Source of the DNA: Candidatus Aenigmatarchaeota archaeon
Lineage (GTDB): Archaea; Aenigmatarchaeota; Aenigmatarchaeia; GW2011-AR5
Reading direction: 5' to 3'
DNA: 44,033 nt
NCBI GenBank assembly: GCA_018304605.1
Contig: JAGVVU010000033.1
Location: forward strand, 1-44,033
The first letter of the stretch is position 1; every line of letters begins with the position of its first letter. The position numbers were made by a program, and so were the translations under genes. Of this stretch, positions 6,535-36,377 are shown piece after piece. A model generated the notes under the pieces. That model had not been told where the DNA came from. It searched no databases and saw only the letters and a list, made by a program, of their open reading frames with translations.

Positions 6535-6941
6535 CCTATCAGCTCGGATGGATATTTGCGAGTCGTGAAGTTGTAGATAATCTGGTCGTGCGAGGCGACG
6601 ATGAAATCGAACTTCACCACGCTCTCTGCCGGCGGATTCACATTACACTGGGCCACGTTATACTCTATCTTCGCGAATACACCCTTCGATGCGAGCTCCT
6701 TTTCCGCAAGCCATTTCAACTCATCCAGGCTCGTGGTCAGGTTCACGCAGTTCGACTGAGAAGTCACGGTCTCCCTCAATATGCTGTCCAGCTGCTCCTC
6801 CATGCTGTTGAAGTAGAAAGCATTATTGACGCGGGCGGTGTCCGCAGAATCCACGACAAAATAATCCCTCAGCAAAAGCGACATCCCGAGGAATATGCTG
6901 GAAGCTACCACGGCCGAAATTATGAACCACTGCCCTCGCAT
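6531..6941 (-). CDS. putative archaeal type IV pilin-like protein (class III signal peptide)
   Basis: N-terminus MRGQ/WFIISAVVASSIFLGMSLLL has a basic-Gly cleavage motif followed by a hydrophobic helix. No other domain recognised. Confidence 0.45.
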   Translation of the reverse strand: MRGQWFIISAVVASSIFLGMSLLLRDYFVVDSADTARVNNAFYFNSMEEQLDSILRETVTSQSNCVNLTTSLDELKWLAEKELASKGVFAKIEYNVAQCNVNPPAESVVKFDFIVASHDQIIYNFTTRKYPSELIG

Positions 6942-10868: not shown

Positions 10869-10899
10869 ATGGTGGCTCGCTGGCGCTCGCATCTTCTCT

Positions 10900-11032
10900 G
10901 GCTTTGTTGAAATGCTCAACAAAAAGCATCGACGTAGACCCATACGTGTTTCCACGTATGGGTCAGCTAGAGGTATTGTCGATACACAATACCTCTCACG
11001 TCGATGCTTTTACCTAGGATTTCAACAAAGCT
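10900..11032. mobile_element. nested-palindrome element A (MITE-like)
   Basis: 13-bp terminal inverted repeat, 14-bp inner stem and two perfect hairpins (12 and 11 bp) joined by AGCT. tcttctct lies on both flanks. Termini ggctttgttg/caacaaagc are shared with element C. Confidence 0.55.
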
Positions 11033-11065
11033 TCTTCTCTTATTTTTTTCTGCTTTAGTAAGATA

Positions 11066-11874: not shown

Positions 11875-13002
11875 ATGTACGCGAGCAAGAAACGATTTCT
11901 AGAAAGGCTTACGCCAAAATTCCCTTCCGTCAAGCTCGGAAAGACGATTGACGGGACAAGTCCGCCTTCGATATTTGTGGGACGCGAGGGATATCCGAAA
12001 GTCTTTGTCGGGCCTCTCGTGACAGAGCAGAAGGGTGATACGTTTGAGATGGACACCCCGGAAGCGTGGCTGGGCAAGAGCAAGATGCAAATCATCGGCT
12101 TCAGGATGCAGCTTGCCCGCGGCATGAAGCAGGTCGGCGTGACGGATATTGACGACAAAATCGTCGGGAAGATGAGGGATATCGCGCTTGCCGGGAAGAC
12201 GGTTGATGCCAACGCAGAGTTTTCAAAAATTCCGAGAGGATACAGCTTCAACGAGGACCACCAGCCGTTCGGGCCTAGTGCGCCGCTGAAGAGCATGGAG
12301 ATATCCAATGTCCGCTTCGAGCATCATATGGAGAAGGCTTATAATGACAGTGACATGAATGCGCGTGCTGCGATTGTCGAACTCTATGAAAAAGGCGTTC
12401 TTGTGTCGCAGATACAGAAAGCCCTCAGTATAGGGGCTTTCGGCGTCAAGAGGCGCTTGGTGCCGACGCGCTGGAGCATAACGGCTGTTGACGACACGCT
12501 TGGAAAGAACCTTCTGGACAGCGTGAGGAGTTATCCGGTCCTTGACAGGTACCTCGTCTACGAGTTCGGCGCGCTCGAGAATTACTTTGCCATACTGCTG
12601 ACACCGACACAATGGCAGTACGAGTTCCTGGAAGTGTTCCTTGGCGTGATGGGACAGGCAGAAATGATATTTTCCGACTGGGAGCCTTACGGAGGGCGCA
12701 CCGCGTATGCCGGCATGGGCGGCTGCTACTATTCAACAAGGCTTGCAATTGCAGAAAAGCTGGACAGCATGAAAAAGCAGTCCGGTGCGATAGTGTTCAG
12801 GGAAAGCTATTCAAGCTACACGCCCCTCGGGGTCTGGCTTGTGAGAGAGAGCGCAAGAAAGGCGCTCCAGATGAAGCCGAGGGAGTTCAGCGACATGAGC
12901 TCCGCACTCAACTACATAGCGAACAAAACACAGCTGCCTTTCTGGAAGTACAGAAGAAGCAGCGTCCTGCTTAGGCAGTCGAGGCTGACCAATTTCTGCT
13001 GA
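11875..13002 (+). CDS. nreA: archaeal DNA repair protein NreA family
   Basis: SPPSIFVGREGYPKVFVGPL, RRLVPTRWSITAVDD and GGCYYSTRLAIAE are hallmark Nre motifs. The stop TGA (13000-13002) is formed at the junction with element D. Confidence 0.75.
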   Translation: MYASKKRFLERLTPKFPSVKLGKTIDGTSPPSIFVGREGYPKVFVGPLVTEQKGDTFEMDTPEAWLGKSKMQIIGFRMQLARGMKQVGVTDIDDKIVGKMRDIALAGKTVDANAEFSKIPRGYSFNEDHQPFGPSAPLKSMEISNVRFEHHMEKAYNDSDMNARAAIVELYEKGVLVSQIQKALSIGAFGVKRRLVPTRWSITAVDDTLGKNLLDSVRSYPVLDRYLVYEFGALENYFAILLTPTQWQYEFLEVFLGVMGQAEMIFSDWEPYGGRTAYAGMGGCYYSTRLAIAEKLDSMKKQSGAIVFRESYSSYTPLGVWLVRESARKALQMKPREFSDMSSALNYIANKTQLPFWKYRRSSVLLRQSRLTNFC

Positions 13003-13160
13003 TTGAATTCCATTAAAGTATGATTATCGCCGTGAGCAGCATTGAAAATGTATGACGCACTTTGTGCGTCTGTCTGTTTTACAATGCTGCTAGCTGACAT
13101 ATACGGTAGTAACCGTATATGTCTACGGCGATAATCATCATACGAATATGGAATTCAATC
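13001..13160. mobile_element. nested-palindrome element D (MITE-like) with a perfect 9-bp target-site duplication
   Basis: TIR gattgaattccat/atggaattcaatc. The direct repeat atttctgct lies immediately on both sides (12992-13000, 13161-13169). Inner 14-bp stem plus two hairpins joined by AGCT. Confidence 0.7.
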
Positions 13161-13238
13161 ATTTCTGCTAGACGTTTCTGCTTTTAAAAAGATTGTTTGC
13201 ATAATTAGGCTAAGGACCACAAACCTGGAGGTATACAA

Positions 13239-23070: not shown

Positions 23071-23127
23071 GCTCTGTAGAATACACAATAAGGCTCCTGC
23101 GACTTTTCTCATAGGTTTTCTACAGAG
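23071..23127. repeat. internally deleted copy (B') of nested-palindrome element B
   Basis: gctctgtagaa ... ttttctcataggttttctacagag are the same termini and 3' spacer as B (25988-26117). The inner hairpins are missing. Confidence 0.6.
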
Positions 23128-25243: not shown

Positions 25244-25762
25244 TTACGTTGGCGACCCTTCCCGCAGCGTCTCGCCGAAATGCTTCACGCTGGACTCCAT
25301 GGATGTCAGCAGCTCTTTCCCGAGGTTCAGGTATTCCATCCTCTGGTGCTGGTAGAACATGTTGTGCCAGAAGCGGCGGACCATCTCGTAGAGTATGTTC
25401 TGCTGCCAGATGGTGTCCTGCGGGTACTCGGTTATCAGGCGCGGCTTTAATCTTATCACTGCCTTCCCCTCGCCGCCCGCGCTGAAGCCTTTCAGCGATA
25501 TCTCGCAGACTATGTACGAATAAGTGTCAAGCACCTTGTTTACTTCCCAGTCGACCTCGAACTTGTCCCCGTCCTTGGTCTTCTCCCACGAGTAGTTCTT
25601 CTCCTGCACGTACGCGTCAGGGACATTGAATATGGTCCTCATAAGCTCGTTAAGCTTCTTGTAGAACTGCTCGGGCTTAGGCCCGACATACGAGATCCTC
25701 AGGTCCTTGATGGGCTCGAATATGTAATCCCATATCAGAAGTTTTGTCCTTCCCCATACCAT
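25244..25762 (-). CDS. orphan protein, paralog of 23152-23640
   Basis: Start set at ATG 25762 by alignment with the paralog's N-terminus. Ends 36 nt upstream of the radical-SAM gene. Confidence 0.6.
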   Translation of the reverse strand: MVWGRTKLLIWDYIFEPIKDLRISYVGPKPEQFYKKLNELMRTIFNVPDAYVQEKNYSWEKTKDGDKFEVDWEVNKVLDTYSYIVCEISLKGFSAGGEGKAVIRLKPRLITEYPQDTIWQQNILYEMVRRFWHNMFYQHQRMEYLNLGKELLTSMESSVKHFGETLREGSPT

Positions 25763-25844
25763 CTTTGTACACCTTATAAGAATATTCCTTAATTCACTAT
25801 ATATTGTTAACCAGGCGAATAATCTGGTCATATTATGCATTGGT

Positions 25845-25943: not shown

Positions 25944-25987
25944 TACGCAAACCAAGTTGTGCCGCATATTTTTAGCCTGGTTTACTA

Positions 25988-26117
25988 GCTCTGTAGAAAT
26001 GCTCAAGGAAAATCAGCAGGAACCCTATTGTGGACACACAATAGGGTTAGTAACTAGAGGGTGTTGTGCTTTCACAACACCCTCCCTGCTGATTTTCTCA
26101 TAGGTTTTCTACAGAGC
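25988..26117. mobile_element. nested-palindrome element B
   Basis: Outer 12 bp, inner 13 bp and two 12-bp hairpins (loops gaca, cttt), all perfect. Same module order as A and D. Confidence 0.55.
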
Positions 26118-26230
26118 CAGCCGGTTTGCTGTATTGATTTTGTGATAAAGAAAGAATCAGAAAAACCGGCAAACGCCGAGCCGGTTATCTTACCTAAAGA
26201 ATATATATCGAACAGGGTCAATAATAAATC

Positions 26231-26723: not shown

Positions 26724-28400
26724 ATGGCAGCAAAAAAAGAGGAAAAGGGTGAATGGATACTTGGCGACCTCTCCAGGCATCCTCTCAAGGGAGACATTCT
26801 CAACAAGTCGCTGGGCAAGATGTGCGGGCCCAAGGGACTGTGGCTCGGCCATGTCCTGGCTGCCGGGCCGTTCGAGGCTCATGTCAAGCTTGATTTCACG
26901 GGGCCGCCCGGCTCCGTTTCCGGGATCTATTACAGCCTCACTTTCCAGCTTGGGAAGTGGGAATATCAGGTGCAGAAGCGTGACGAATGGATAGAAGTCT
27001 CTCCGGTCCACGCGCAATACTATCAGCTGACGCAGAAGCAAAAAGAGGATTTGGAAGGGAAGATAAAACAGGGGCTCGTCTCGGTCTCCCAGTCGGTTGC
27101 GGACATGGAGCTGCTCATGCATGACAGGCGCAGGTATCATGAATTCCTGCATTATCTCGGCTACAGGACTCCAAACGAGTTGAAAAAAGACAAGAAGCTA
27201 GAGAAGCAGGAAAAGGAGCACCAGCACATAGACGAGGAAATGGATGAGATATGCCTGAAAGAGGACGAAGATGAAAAACAGCGAAAGGAGAGGGAGAAGC
27301 GGACGGACAATCATTCTCTCAAGGCGGTGTTCATAGACCAGGTTGACATGCACACCGGCGAAGGGATCTCAATGCGCAGCATAGTAAGTCGCTGGCCCAC
27401 GCTCATCACGGACTTCATGAGGATGGACGACGGCGACATGGATCCCGGCAAGGTGAGGGACAAACTGGACATCTCACGGGCAGAGGCAGTAGTACTCATA
27501 ACCAAGAACAAGCTCTTCCAGGAATGGAAAAACATCTTTGGACCGGAAATAAAGAACAGGTACATCACAATAAACGACCTGACCAGAGCCAGAAAGGAGT
27601 CTGTGAAACAGTACAAGGAGTGGCTCAAGCCGTTCATAGCGAGGCACAAGCTCATCAAGGAAGGGTTGGCGACCGCGGGCGGCCGGGGCGGGGCGCTGAC
27701 GTCATTTGTCACTTCCGGCGGGGTCGCCACTTCCTCGTCGAAGATAGTGCTGTATGTCTGGAAGGATTTTCTCGTCCCGGAGCTGTACAAGGGCGGGTCG
27801 GAGGAAACTGCGAAGATGCGCGAGTTCAAAAAACTCAGGCCCGACGACGACTGGACGATGAAAAACCTTATATTCAGCAGGAAATTCGGGCTCATAAACA
27901 AATATCCATGGATTACGGAGAAATGGGTGAAGGACAAGCTGGAAGAAATGGGGGCTTCCAGATGGTTCACTTACCAGAAGCCTTACTATTCGTTTTTTGA
28001 GATAACACTCGAGAAGACCAACATCAGGATGCCAACTGGCGACGAGATGGAGGACGGGGTATTCGACATCAACATGTTCTGCATGAGCGAAAATGCTTTG
28101 TTCTGCAAGCTGCTCGAACTGAAGGCGGAGCAGGAGCTCATGGAGCAGCACGTGAACAGGCTGCTCGGCATACATGAGCCTGTGCGCGGCACAGTGCCGA
28201 AATATGCGCAAAAAGAGGAGAGCCCGGTAACAAAATTCCTTGACAAATTCCCGATGCCGTTCCAGTTCGCCAAGAATCACGGGCCCTACGAGCGCGACTT
28301 CGCAGACAGGCTGACGAAGATATATTTCGCGCGCATAGCGGGCGAGAGGTACGCGCCGATAGTCAACTTCATAAAAATGAAGATGGGAATGAAAGCTTGA
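26724..28400 (+). CDS. large orphan protein (558 aa) with a central acidic/basic coiled-coil insert
   Basis: AAGGAG lies upstream of the ATG. Long uninterrupted ORF with protein-like composition. No motif recognised. Confidence 0.7.
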   Translation: MAAKKEEKGEWILGDLSRHPLKGDILNKSLGKMCGPKGLWLGHVLAAGPFEAHVKLDFTGPPGSVSGIYYSLTFQLGKWEYQVQKRDEWIEVSPVHAQYYQLTQKQKEDLEGKIKQGLVSVSQSVADMELLMHDRRRYHEFLHYLGYRTPNELKKDKKLEKQEKEHQHIDEEMDEICLKEDEDEKQRKEREKRTDNHSLKAVFIDQVDMHTGEGISMRSIVSRWPTLITDFMRMDDGDMDPGKVRDKLDISRAEAVVLITKNKLFQEWKNIFGPEIKNRYITINDLTRARKESVKQYKEWLKPFIARHKLIKEGLATAGGRGGALTSFVTSGGVATSSSKIVLYVWKDFLVPELYKGGSEETAKMREFKKLRPDDDWTMKNLIFSRKFGLINKYPWITEKWVKDKLEEMGASRWFTYQKPYYSFFEITLEKTNIRMPTGDEMEDGVFDINMFCMSENALFCKLLELKAEQELMEQHVNRLLGIHEPVRGTVPKYAQKEESPVTKFLDKFPMPFQFAKNHGPYERDFADRLTKIYFARIAGERYAPIVNFIKMKMGMKA

Positions 28401-30342: not shown

Positions 30343-30441
30343 GGCTTTGTTGCAAAAGTGATGGACATCTGTCGATGTCCATCGATGCATTAGGCTATCG
30401 ATGCTAAACGCATATCGATAGCCGACTTTTGCAACAAAGCC
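30343..30441. mobile_element. nested-palindrome element C
   Basis: 17-bp outer stem ggctttgttgcaaaagt/acttttgcaacaaagcc encloses two 10-bp hairpins. ccaaga/caaga direct repeat at both junctions. Same termini as element A. Confidence 0.5.
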
Positions 30442-32870: not shown

Positions 32871-33080
32871 ATGGGATACGAATTTCATGTCCATGGATTG
32901 TGGATACTCGGGGCAATTTCATTCTTCTTAGGCACATTAATAGCAGGAAACCTGCAATGGGTCGAAGGCACCACGAATGCATCATTTGTTTTGTCTGTAG
33001 TGATAGCGTTCCTCTTCATCCTGTTCGCCGGCGCGCTGTGGATCTCCGCAGCGGTCAACGCCCGCGTGGAGCAGAGATAA
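32871..33080 (+). CDS. small membrane protein (69 aa, 2 TM helices)
   Basis: Two hydrophobic helices. Starts 2 nt after the previous stop. Confidence 0.5.
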   Translation: MGYEFHVHGLWILGAISFFLGTLIAGNLQWVEGTTNASFVLSVVIAFLFILFAGALWISAAVNARVEQR

Positions 33081-33115
33081 ATTAGATGACTGCAAAGTAC
33101 AGATGAGAAAGACAA

Positions 33116-33676
33116 TCAGGCGGCAGCGACCTTTTCCAGCAGTTCCGTCCTCCGGATCTCTATGCTGCCTATCGGGTAGACTTTGCTGCAGTCCTTCTTG
33201 AGCTTGTGCTGTAGGTTGCCCTCGATTATGGCGTTGATGAACTCCTCGAACGTAGCTTTGCTGGCAGCTTCTTCGATCATGTCGTGCGCCATCTTGCGGG
33301 TCGCGTTCTTCGTCGAGCTTCCCACCCTCTTGATAAGCATGAAAACCGTCTTCACGCGTATGTGCACGCCGTCCTTGGTCCTGACGTCCTGTATGGCATC
33401 GACGCGGCGGCCGTGGCGCTGGACCATGCGGTAAATGCGCTCGCGCAGGACATCGTGGCCTACCAGCTTCGTGTGCGCCTTGTTGCCGTCTATCTTGTCT
33501 ATCTGCAAACGCACTTTTACGAAGAATTTCGAGTAATTGCGCGATATGTCCATGAGGCTGACGTCTATCTTCCTTCCAACGAGCTGGCGGCTGTCCGCAG
33601 CAAGTGTCTCGCCGATAGGCTGGCCCCCGAGCATCTCCGGTGCCACGATCTCGTACCATGTTTTTTTTACTGCCAT
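33116..33676 (-). CDS. rps3ae: 30S ribosomal protein S3Ae (S1e)
   Basis: MAVKKTWYEIVAPEMLGG...VGRKIDVSLMDI...FFVKVRLQIDKIDG is typical S3Ae. Start set at ATG 33676. Confidence 0.9.
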   Translation of the reverse strand: MAVKKTWYEIVAPEMLGGQPIGETLAADSRQLVGRKIDVSLMDISRNYSKFFVKVRLQIDKIDGNKAHTKLVGHDVLRERIYRMVQRHGRRVDAIQDVRTKDGVHIRVKTVFMLIKRVGSSTKNATRKMAHDMIEEAASKATFEEFINAIIEGNLQHKLKKDCSKVYPIGSIEIRRTELLEKVAAA

Positions 33677-33756: not shown

Positions 33757-33925
33757 CAAGGTGAAGTTCTTGACTTCACCTGTACAGGAAGAACCTTAGT
33801 TCTTCCTCGTATTATCCTAGAATGCATTGAATACTGCGGTCTAAAGACCGCAGATGAAACTCAATGCATTCTGGATGCCATGTTCCCAGATACCCATGGC
33901 TTTAGCCATGGGTTATAAGGAACAT
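33757..33925. repeat. cluster of four perfect or nested hairpins, including the ATACTGCGGNCTAAAGNCCGCAGAT module
   Basis: aggtgaagt/acttcacct, aggaagaac/gttcttcct, agaatgcattga/tcaatgcattct enclosing ctgcggtc-taaa-gaccgcag, and atgttcc/ggaacat enclosing acccatggc-ttta-gccatgggt. Confidence 0.6.
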
Positions 33926-33983
33926 ATCATCAACCTTACTTGAGTGAGAAGTTTTAAAAAGGTTGAATCCGGCCGCTAATAAT

Positions 33984-34797: not shown

Positions 34798-34834
34798 AAT
34801 TTTGCTTAAAAACACTCTACTGTAATGCTTAGAT

Positions 34835-36377
34835 ATGAAATTCTCGCAGCTGGCTGACTTGTACGAGCGGCTTGACGGCACAACCAAGAAGCTCGAAAAA
34901 AGGGACATTCTTGCCGAGTTCTATAAAAAGTGCGCCGACACCGAGCTGTACAAGGCTGTCGTGCTCTCGACGGGAACCGTATTCCCCCGGGGCGAGCAGG
35001 AGCTTGGCCGCTGAGAAGCTCATGGAGAAAAGGAAACAGGTTGCGCTGGCAAAGCGCGAGCTGACAACAGACCAGGTTTTTGACAACCTGCGCAAGCTGC
35101 CGTCCATTGCCGGGCAGGGCAGCCAGGACAAGAAGATCGGGCTGATTGCAGAACTGCTTTCAGCCGCGAGCCCGAAGGAAGCAAGATACATCGTCCGCAC
35201 TGCGCTTGGCCAGATGAGAATAGGAGTTGCAGCTGGAATAGTGAGAGACGCGATAGCAAAGGCATTTGACAAGGAACCGAAAGAGATAGAGAGAATATAT
35301 GATATTTTAGGCGACTTCGGAAAAGTCGCTGAAATGGCAAAACGCGGGAAATTGAAAGCGGAAATTATAGTCGGCATTCCGCTGCGCGTCATGCTTGCAG
35401 ACCGCGCTGCTGACCTGAAAGAGGCGATGGAAAAGTTCGAACATGTCGCTATCGAAACAAAATATGACGGCTTCCGCGTGCAGATACACAAGAATAACAA
35501 TGATGTCAGGATTTTTTCGCGCAGGATGGATGATGTCACGAGGCAGTTTCCTGACATGGCTGCGATGGCGAAGGAAGGAATAAAGTGCGGGCAGTGCATT
35601 GTCGAGGGCGAGGCATTGGCGATAAAGGCAGGGCGCCCGCAGCCGTTTCAGTTGTTGTCAAAGAGGATACAGCGTAAATATCATATAGAGAGGATGGTAA
35701 AGGAGATTCCTGTACAGGTAAACTTGTTTGACCTCCTGTATATTGACGGCGAGACTTACATGAACCAGCCACTGGCTGAAAGATGGAGCGCGCTAAAGAA
35801 AGCAGTAAAGGAAAGCAAATCTTTCAGGCTTGCTGATCACATAGAGACAAAAGATTTCGCCGTCGCGAACAAATTTTACAAGAGTTCCATAGCATCTGGG
35901 CAGGAAGGCGTTATTGTAAAAAACAGTACTGCGCATTATCAGCCCGGCAAGCGCGTTGGGTACTGGCTAAAGGTCAAGGAGATACTTGACCCTCTGGACC
36001 TTGTTGTTGTCGGAGCGGAATGGGGAGAAGGACGCAGGGCCAGATGGTTTTCATCTGTGATACTTGCTGCGCGGGATAAAGGGAAGCTAGTAAGCACAGG
36101 CAGGATGGCTAGCGGCTTCACCGAAGAGCAGCTGGAAGAACTGACGAAGACGCTGAAACCGCTCATAATCGGCGAGGAAGGAAAAATAGCTGCAGTGAAG
36201 CCGAAGGTAGTATTGGAAATCGGATACGAAGAGCTGCAAAAGTCGCCCAAATACGAGTCCGGGTACGCAATGCGCTTCCCTCGTTTGCTAAATTTCAGGT
36301 CGGACAAATCTCCGGAGGACTGCACAACATTAAAAGAGATCGAAAAAATATACAGCTTGCAGAGAGGACGGAAATGA
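34835..36377 (+). CDS. lig: ATP-dependent DNA ligase, reading frame broken (needs a +1 shift near 35003-35014)
   Basis: The true N-terminus MKFSQLADLYERLDGTTKKLEKRDILAEFY...GTVFPRGEQELG is in frame 34835 and hits TGA at 35012. The rest (AAEKLMEK...GSQDKK...IETKYDGFRVQIH...EGVIVK...WLKVK...) is in the +1 frame (ORF 34872-36377). Confidence 0.85.

Follow-up and report, generated by a model that had tools for sequence, protein, structure and literature searches.

Probable insertion of a 160-bp miniature inverted-repeat transposable element with a Y-shaped core at the nreA stop codon of a Candidatus Aenigmatarchaeota archaeon

In the 44,033-nt stretch of Candidatus Aenigmatarchaeota archaeon DNA analyzed here (contig JAGVVU010000033.1 of assembly GCA_018304605.1; hereafter, the window), the gene nreA ends inside a 160-bp element with inverted-repeat ends, which we refer to as element D. 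This gene (11875–13002, + strand; listed among the open reading frames, ORFs) encodes a protein of 375 aa with Pfam matches to Nre_N (9.5e-81) and Nre_C (7e-30). The question raised by this locus is how a gene came to share its stop codon with such an element, and what kind of DNA the element is. Our answer is that element D is very probably a MITE (miniature inverted-repeat transposable element) which was inserted by a transposase that makes a 9-bp staggered cut, an enzyme whose class we infer.

Element D occupies positions 13001–13160 and is bounded by perfect (13/13) terminal inverted repeats, GATTGAATTCCAT. The left repeat (13001–13013, + strand) is the exact reverse complement of the right one (13148–13160, − strand; ATGGAATTCAATC on the + strand), and both are the sole zero-mismatch matches in the window. 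A perfect 9-bp direct repeat, ATTTCTGCT, brackets the element at 12992–13000 and 13161–13169, and the bases beyond these two 9-mers differ between the left and the right side. With regard to the interior, an inner stem (P1) pairs 14/14 between its 5′ arm (13020–13033) and its 3′ arm (13125–13138) and encloses, in this order, the branched hairpin P3 (13035–13091), an AGCT junction linker (13092–13095; invariant in 24 aligned unique cores) and P2, a hairpin whose 12 base pairs are all matched and whose loop measures 4 nt (13096–13123; GACATATACGGT AGTA ACCGTATATGTC). P3 is made up of a stem at its base (AGCAGCATTG/CAATGCTGCT) and an extension at its apex, tipped by a small hairpin, GACGCAC-TTT-GTGCGTC (13054–13070); its 14-nt arms, at 13035–13048 and 13078–13091, were located by repeat search. 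A 9-nt 3′ spacer (13139–13147) completes the element. An earlier note on this DNA, made from the letters alone, had proposed an insertion with these borders, terminal repeats and interior parts; direct reading of the sequence and the repeat search proved its coordinates and the 13-bp repeat correct to the base, and all of the interior parts were found at the positions given. Element D is overlapped by a single ORF, of 62 aa, which lies antisense and reaches into nreA.

The last eight coding bases of nreA and the T of its stop codon lie within the left 9-mer, the remaining GA being bases of the element. Thus, the stop codon TGA is composed of T13000 from the left repeat and of G13001 and A13002 from element D. 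In silico deletion of the element together with one 9-mer gives …TTC TGC TAG, since AG follows the right 9-mer, and the last T of the right duplication opens the displaced original stop codon TAG (13169–13171). These observations support the claim of a duplication-flanked insertion that rebuilt the nreA stop codon, and the replacement of that codon is a consequence of element D starting with GA. The predicted junction of the empty site is CCAATTTCTGCT directly joined to AGACGTTTCTGC.

Named NreA homologues come from Aenigmarchaeota or other DPANN archaea, with identities of 50–57%, and the exact NreA protein was present on 18 metagenome contigs (ENA and JGI). All eight same-species contigs that were fetched contain element D at 100% identity, including that of a strain which is 97.9% identical overall. 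Being identical in eight independent assemblies, the insertion is real and not an assembly artefact. The empty site, which the earlier note had suggested seeking in related genomes or in strain-level reads, has a counterpart in other species: in the closest relatives for which contigs were available (loci L009 and L010; NreA 82% identical), the element is absent after nreA. In particular, the nreA 3′ end of L010, AAC TTC TGC TAG CGTGACTTCTTGC, agrees up to and including the stop codon with the empty site that was predicted, and that of L009, also without the element, reads TTC TGT TGA. Of the eight NreA sequences retrieved, which are 69–100% identical to the window protein, six have a length of 375–377 residues and terminate in …FC.

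Two side observations concern the same region. The contigs of two independent assemblies (L006 and L008, one of them from the 97.9%-identical strain) both end inside element D at a position corresponding to 13122 of the window, which leaves the 12-bp hairpin one base short of complete, likely as a result of an assembly-graph problem posed by repeats or palindromes, or of strain heterogeneity to the right. Furthermore, a 104-aa gene on the opposite strand lies between nreA and a 78-aa gene in both relatives (L009, 5710–6024; L010, 2064–2378). It is missing from the window lineage (13170–13238), where only about 15 similar bases remain after the stop codon, which implies that the gene was either deleted here or acquired by the other lineage, at the same spot as the MITE insertion.

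Element D is not unique. A scan of one genome per species (185,579 species), in which both ends were required to lie 115–145 nt apart, returned eight full-length copies, all of them in the metagenome-assembled genome (MAG) CAYJTG01 (‘uncultured archaeon’), and a ninth copy in that MAG is a 131-bp deletion form adjoining another MITE. CAYJTG01 represents a different species, with its shared coding DNA being approximately 79% identical to that of the window. A metagenome scan for the conserved hairpin core yielded 37 loci, several of which hold D-type elements, and approximately seven further D-type copies were found on metagenome contigs, including some from the window population’s own metagenome (L018, L036 and L038). 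The ends at these metagenome loci are either the same as in element D or the variants GATTGTATTAAC, GATTGCATTAAC and GGATTGTATCCA. The 13-bp terminal repeats are identical in 10 further copies, and the D ends recur at 16 loci other than the window.

Flanking 9-bp repeats with no more than one mismatch accompany 13 of the 17 D-type insertions (10 perfect and three at 8/9), and every one of them is a different sequence, with an AT content of 66%. Such diversity argues against the 9-mers being an invariant target of a site-specific recombinase. The copies lie in both orientations at unrelated loci, mostly in short gaps beside gene ends. One of them, a 131-bp D-type copy in L014 (contig 3 of CAYJTG01; 6617–6747), is nested in the tip of an A-type MITE (region 6608–6891), a type that is represented in the window by element A (see below). 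This copy duplicated GTGTAGCTC, which spans the host MITE’s own duplication and first bases, and the host element has its own 8-bp duplication, GATAGTGT. The CAYJTG01 copies are 92–100% identical to each other, and as two of them do not differ at all, the family must have been amplified recently in that genome. When the window species is compared with the CAYJTG01 species, the element is approximately 81% identical overall, and the tips are 100% identical over 22 nt inward from the left (13001–13022) and 27 nt inward from the right (13134–13160), so that the ends are strictly conserved across species and the interior diverges. This pattern is the signature of a family of transposase-recognized, recently active, non-autonomous elements, and the dispersed copies with their differing 9-bp repeats bear out the proposal that the family is, or was, mobile by a mechanism that duplicates its target. 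As a side observation, L038, L018 and L036 share a left flank and a 131-bp D-type element, after which L038 enters a different right flank. This switch results either from recombination between two copies or from a chimeric assembly across the repeat, and the different flank implies at least one more D-type copy in that population.

The same data bear on another alternative, namely that chance, or a local tandem duplication, accounts for the 9-bp repeats and the inverted ends, and that the 160 bp are ordinary intergenic DNA. The region is mildly repetitive, with a near-identical 8-mer, TTTCTGCT, located 13 bp downstream of the right repeat as part of a third, 8/9 copy of the 9-mer (GTTTCTGCT, 13174–13182). 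However, that copy is native post-stop sequence, as the equivalent CTTCTGC...CTTCTTGC is present in a relative without the element. Moreover, the 160 bp are absent from the site in relatives, and the same ends occur at 16 other loci, each with its own flanking repeats. The earlier note had itself considered that no other copies and no empty sites might exist, or that the 9-mers might belong to a longer tandem duplication; instead, nine copies in CAYJTG01, about seven in metagenomes and element-free relatives were found, and no similarity between left and right continues beyond the 9-mers. We consider coincidence or tandem duplication to be refuted by the copies from the genome scan and by the repeat tally over 17 insertions, and the chance that it is nevertheless correct to be negligible.

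Regarding the enzyme, no transposase family was found in the window, for which precomputed Pfam assignments (2–23 kb) and Pfam and NCBIfam searches of the larger remaining ORFs were used, so that the earlier statement that the window holds no transposase stands for the ORFs scanned. Several window ORFs match no family; these include a 558-aa ORF (26724–28400) located approximately 600 bp downstream of element C, a further MITE described below, and the ORFs at 25244–25840, 32982–33659 and 34829–35599, for none of which a Pfam or NCBIfam family was obtained. Whole-genome scans for end pairs covered repeats up to 600 bp apart. In the fetched loci, searches for single ends and for end pairs 60–4000 bp apart with 5–10-bp repeats gave only MITE-sized elements and chance pairs, with solitary ends no more frequent than expected by chance, and the protein families repeated across loci included no partner transposase. 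Neither end type was found in IMG/VR, and a protein look-up near the window end, performed to extend the locus, added only ribosomal genes.

Several points weigh against the reading of element D as a MITE inserted with a 9-bp staggered cut. Searches of the window, of approximately 395 kb of related loci and of IMG/VR revealed neither a transposase nor an autonomous element bounded by GATTGAATTCCAT ends. The flanking repeats are degraded or shifted in four of the 17 D-type copies. The interior is a rigid three-way structure which is also present in MITEs with unrelated ends, and which ordinary MITE biology does not require. Finally, an empty-site allele of the same species was found neither among the eight same-species contigs nor, as an exact 24-mer, in JGI metagenome contigs. 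As all same-species contigs carry element D and the empty 24-mer is absent, the insertion looks fixed in this population; the empty site is inferred from other species only, and any excision or recent movement within this genome would be hypothetical.

The perfect terminal repeats and the fixed 9-bp duplication point to a DDE-type transposase as the putative partner enzyme. Element D is very probably a non-coding DNA transposon that is unable to move alone, with the transposase acting in trans. This enzyme would recognize the GATTGAATTCCAT tips and approximately 10–14 subterminal bases, including GTATGAT, and would cut the target with a stagger of 9 bp, the repair of the gaps leading to the 9-bp duplication. 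One copy would have integrated into ATTTCTGCT, spanning the last nreA codons and the first base of the stop codon. As every copy starts with GA, the final T of the left duplication followed by GA yields TGA, and the native …NFC end is kept. The unchanged C-terminus of NreA is probably the reason that the insertion was tolerated and fixed, and its survival may reflect the preserved reading frame.

Of the features which define MITEs (summarised in PMC10969869), the following are present in element D: a size of 160 bp without a transposase gene, terminal inverted repeats, target-site duplications of constant length and variable sequence, and dispersed copies. Prokaryotic MITEs such as SM1–4 of Sulfolobus, the Correia elements of Neisseria and QMITE2 of Coxiella are, like element D, small, non-coding and multicopy, and have terminal inverted repeats and a fixed-length duplication; intergenic AT-rich targets, very stable predicted folds and nested insertions are also common to both. 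Some DPANN genomes showed high MITE densities in a census (PMC11602168). Element D departs from typical MITEs in that no cognate insertion sequence (IS) was found in the window, the approximately 395 kb of related loci or IMG/VR, and in that its interior is not just a decayed IS: it holds an 86-nt Y-shaped core of constant geometry that is common to families with unrelated ends. Element D thus belongs to a known kind, the archaeal MITEs; the family itself was not found described in the literature, where general censuses and reviews, and no description of Aenigmarchaeota MITEs specifically, were encountered. The palindromic elements of Rickettsia and the palindromic repeats of Methanocaldococcus are mobile and survive in or at coding sequences without destroying the protein. 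Those repeats become part of the protein by in-frame translation, whereas element D contributes no amino acid and merely exchanges one stop codon for another.

The interior of the element calls for an explanation of its own. A covariance model of the core was built from 24 unique cores. The core comprises 86 nt and consists of a 12-bp P1 stem, an unpaired A, P2 (a 12-bp hairpin with a tetraloop), AGCT, a 12-bp P3 stem, an unpaired C and, to close the structure, the second strand of P1. In element D, the model scores best on the − strand (62 bits, compared with 28.7 bits on the + strand). The extension at the P3 tip is optional and is absent from the 131-bp copies, and its hairpin, GACGCAC...GTGCGTC, was found in three end classes; the AGCT linker is replaced by other linkers in divergent Y-shaped MITE types. 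MITEs with different ends, namely IS6- or IS903-like ends with 8-bp duplications, contain the same core.

A rival explanation of such an interior is that the element is primarily a structured RNA (a small RNA gene, a 3′ untranslated region, a terminator or a stability element) which became dispersed in the genome and whose Y fold was selected as RNA. Both strands of element D are indeed predicted to fold very stably into a rod with a Y-shaped centre, with −85.2 kcal/mol compared with −34.7 ± 3.9 for shuffled sequences (z = −13), and −80.3 kcal/mol (z = −14 relative to shuffles) for the opposite strand. The copies lie in short intergenic gaps adjoining gene ends, and the covariation in the three helices is strong: across the 24 cores, standard pairs fill 98.3% of the cells, both partners have changed in 23 of the 36 pairs, the observed values were not attained by any shuffle, and sliding the partner columns destroys the signal. 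Moreover, MITE transcripts have been discussed as terminators or small RNAs (PMC10969869). The kind of pairing argues otherwise. G·U was found in seven of 864 cells in the 24 cores, and a wider set of 52 unique cores contained 1766 Watson–Crick pairs as against 23 G·T, 28 A·C and 26 mismatches of other kinds, i.e., no excess of G·U over A·C (23 compared with 28), which a strand-specific RNA should show. This covariation, restricted to Watson–Crick pairs, indicates DNA palindromes, where a mismatch would merely mark the decay of one copy, rather than a strand-specific RNA.

The orientation of the core is a further point against an RNA, since it varies relative to the neighbouring genes (within the window, it is sense in element A and antisense in element D), and the core is sometimes inverted relative to the asymmetric outer arms (element A of the window compared with L016, 133–267; L022 compared with L023). 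No Rfam 15 family matched the window at gathering thresholds, with only chance-level matches (E > 2) near the element, and no tRNA or tmRNA was found. A ribozyme or k-turn junction was dropped after inspection by eye, as the junction strands A, AGCT and C are not known to match any conserved core. Since an RNA would leave the terminal repeats and the target duplications unexplained, it could at best add to the MITE reading, and as an account of the element we regard it as improbable.

The favoured reading is that the core may be a DNA-level structural module (single-stranded DNA hairpins or a cruciform) which travels with these MITEs. The flip/flop arrangement of the cores fits an origin by template switching or recombination involving the two inverted arms. 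In L012 and L013, whole hairpins differ between otherwise near-identical copies, with every change compensated, which suggests an exchange of hairpin units or a hairpin-templated correction rather than stepwise selection. The core is probably kept perfect in part by such templated correction together with whole-hairpin exchange between copies.

Four further elements lie in the window. Element A (10892–11040, + strand) is a 133-bp MITE (10900–11032) with GGCTTTGTTGAA ends and an 8-bp duplication, TCTTCTCT; no other core in the window scores as high against the family model as that of element A (10924–11009; 100 bits). Element B (30343–30441, + strand) comprises 99 bp with 17-bp ends, GGCTTTGTTGCAAAAGT, and contains two hairpins and a weak core match; a B-like 99-bp element is flanked by a 9-bp duplication. 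Element C (25985–26120, + strand) has CTCTGTAGAAA ends and a diverged core (26008–26097), and element C′ (23072–23127, + strand) is a short C-type derivative without a core. Elements C and C′ have common CTCTGTAGAA ends, show no clear flanking duplication and are probably older copies. As the covariance model matches elements A, B, C and D, the interior plan which the earlier note had recognized in A and B is indeed shared. Across all loci, 8-bp duplications were observed at about 20 insertions of the A and C types, which measure 133 bp and have either GGCTCTGTAGAAA or GGCTTTGTTGAAA as their ends.

The ends of these elements point in different directions with regard to known IS families. IS903, a member of the IS5 family, generates a 9-bp target duplication, the same length as that of element D. 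The IS903B end, GGCTTTGTTGAATAAATC, was verified in plasmid CP117218; its first 12 bases are matched by the ends of element A (GGCTTTGTTGAA) and its first 10 bases by those of element B (GGCTTTGTTG). However, the GATTGAATTCCAT ends of element D share only the hexamer TTGAAT with it, and nothing ties element D to an IS5-family enzyme. The IS6 family is characterized by a GG tip, cTGTt and caaa motifs and an 8-bp duplication, includes two IS6-derived MITEs and is abundant in archaea (PMC7986276). Elements A and C resemble IS6/IS26: their duplications are 8 bp long (at least 20 cases), and their ends carry a GG tip together with TGT and AAA motifs. For element D itself, an origin as an IS6/IS26-derived MITE was ruled out, given that it has neither a GG tip nor cTGTt or caaa and that its duplication is 9 bp long; it shares its core with elements that look IS6-type, though it is not of that type.

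Some related loci extend the range of the core. MITE types of 87–128 bp that comprise hardly anything beyond the Y fold, with the P1 stem as the terminal repeat, were observed in L012 (2074–2162), L013 (6348–6467), L011 (1938–2024 and 6805–6891), L017 (2091–2177) and L050 (477–620). They differ in sequence and in the linker (TTTCT, AGAAAA or GGTAG), and those of L012 and L013 have perfect 9-bp duplications. The core of L031 (5845–5996), located between two genes, is turned into a four-way junction by an additional hairpin and has no recognizable terminal repeats; it may be a relic, or a core existing without transposon ends. Within the window, a cluster at 33759–33931 contains perfect hairpins with 9-bp stems (33759–33781, 33786–33807 and 33892–33913) and a 28-nt imperfect palindrome (33874–33931). 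Its matches to the core model are weak (E of about 0.03–2), and it may be a degraded or unrelated palindromic element.

A further alternative places the function of the element in its hairpins. Under this alternative, element D would be related to repetitive extragenic palindromic (REP) sequences and bacterial interspersed mosaic elements (BIME), or would be an IS200/IS605-derived palindrome-associated transposable element (PATE); its movement, in single-stranded form, would be due to an HUH (Y1) transposase whose recognition sites are hairpins with a short motif before them. REP hairpins are preceded on their 5′ side by a GTAG tetranucleotide, and each of the two hairpins of the core has CGT(A)G or CGTGAG in front of it on its own strand. 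The palindromes are of the DNA type, with Watson–Crick pairs only, and at least one core, that of L031, lacks recognizable terminal repeats. HUH elements, however, are known to lack terminal inverted repeats, to produce no target duplication and to insert beside a fixed tetranucleotide, whereas the tips here are perfect inverted repeats and the flanking repeats are of constant length (9 bp for D; 8 bp for A and C) and arbitrary sequence. Neither a Y1 nor a TnpB gene was detected among the window ORFs scanned with Pfam/NCBIfam or covered by the precomputed Pfam assignments. Membership in the IS200/IS605 PATE or REP/BIME groups was ruled out on the grounds of the terminal repeats and the variable 9-bp duplications, and we consider movement by an HUH enzyme very improbable. 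REP/BIME sequences and the T-shaped terminal repeats of parvoviruses do resemble the core in pairing short DNA hairpins in a Y or T, in flip/flop and in a DNA-level constraint; they differ from element D in their dependence on HUH nucleases and in having no combination of terminal inverted repeats and target duplication, so that the resemblance is structural only.

We return to the MITE reading and to the role that the core might play in it. A bolder proposal, about which we are rather doubtful, is that the core is a selected module and not filler, acting as a three-way junction or double cruciform for a structure-specific protein or in the processing of single-stranded DNA. Just as tentatively, this module might have been joined repeatedly to GATTG... 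ends with 9-bp duplications and to GGCTCTGT... ends with 8-bp duplications, the P3 extension being shared between them. If this were true, the core would be a structured cargo which hitch-hikes on, or helps, several transposition systems in reduced DPANN genomes.

For the organism, this locus provides a documented case of a MITE insertion that replaced a stop codon and left the protein unchanged, and it indicates that small DPANN (Aenigmarchaeota-like) genomes host active non-autonomous transposon families. This is useful for the annotation of such genomes, and helps to make sense of broken contigs and strain differences in their metagenome assemblies. For the family, the presence of one rigid Y core across unrelated ends and duplication lengths is not explained by the common view that a MITE is a pair of IS ends around junk, and suggests a constraint at the level of DNA structure in mobilization or maintenance.

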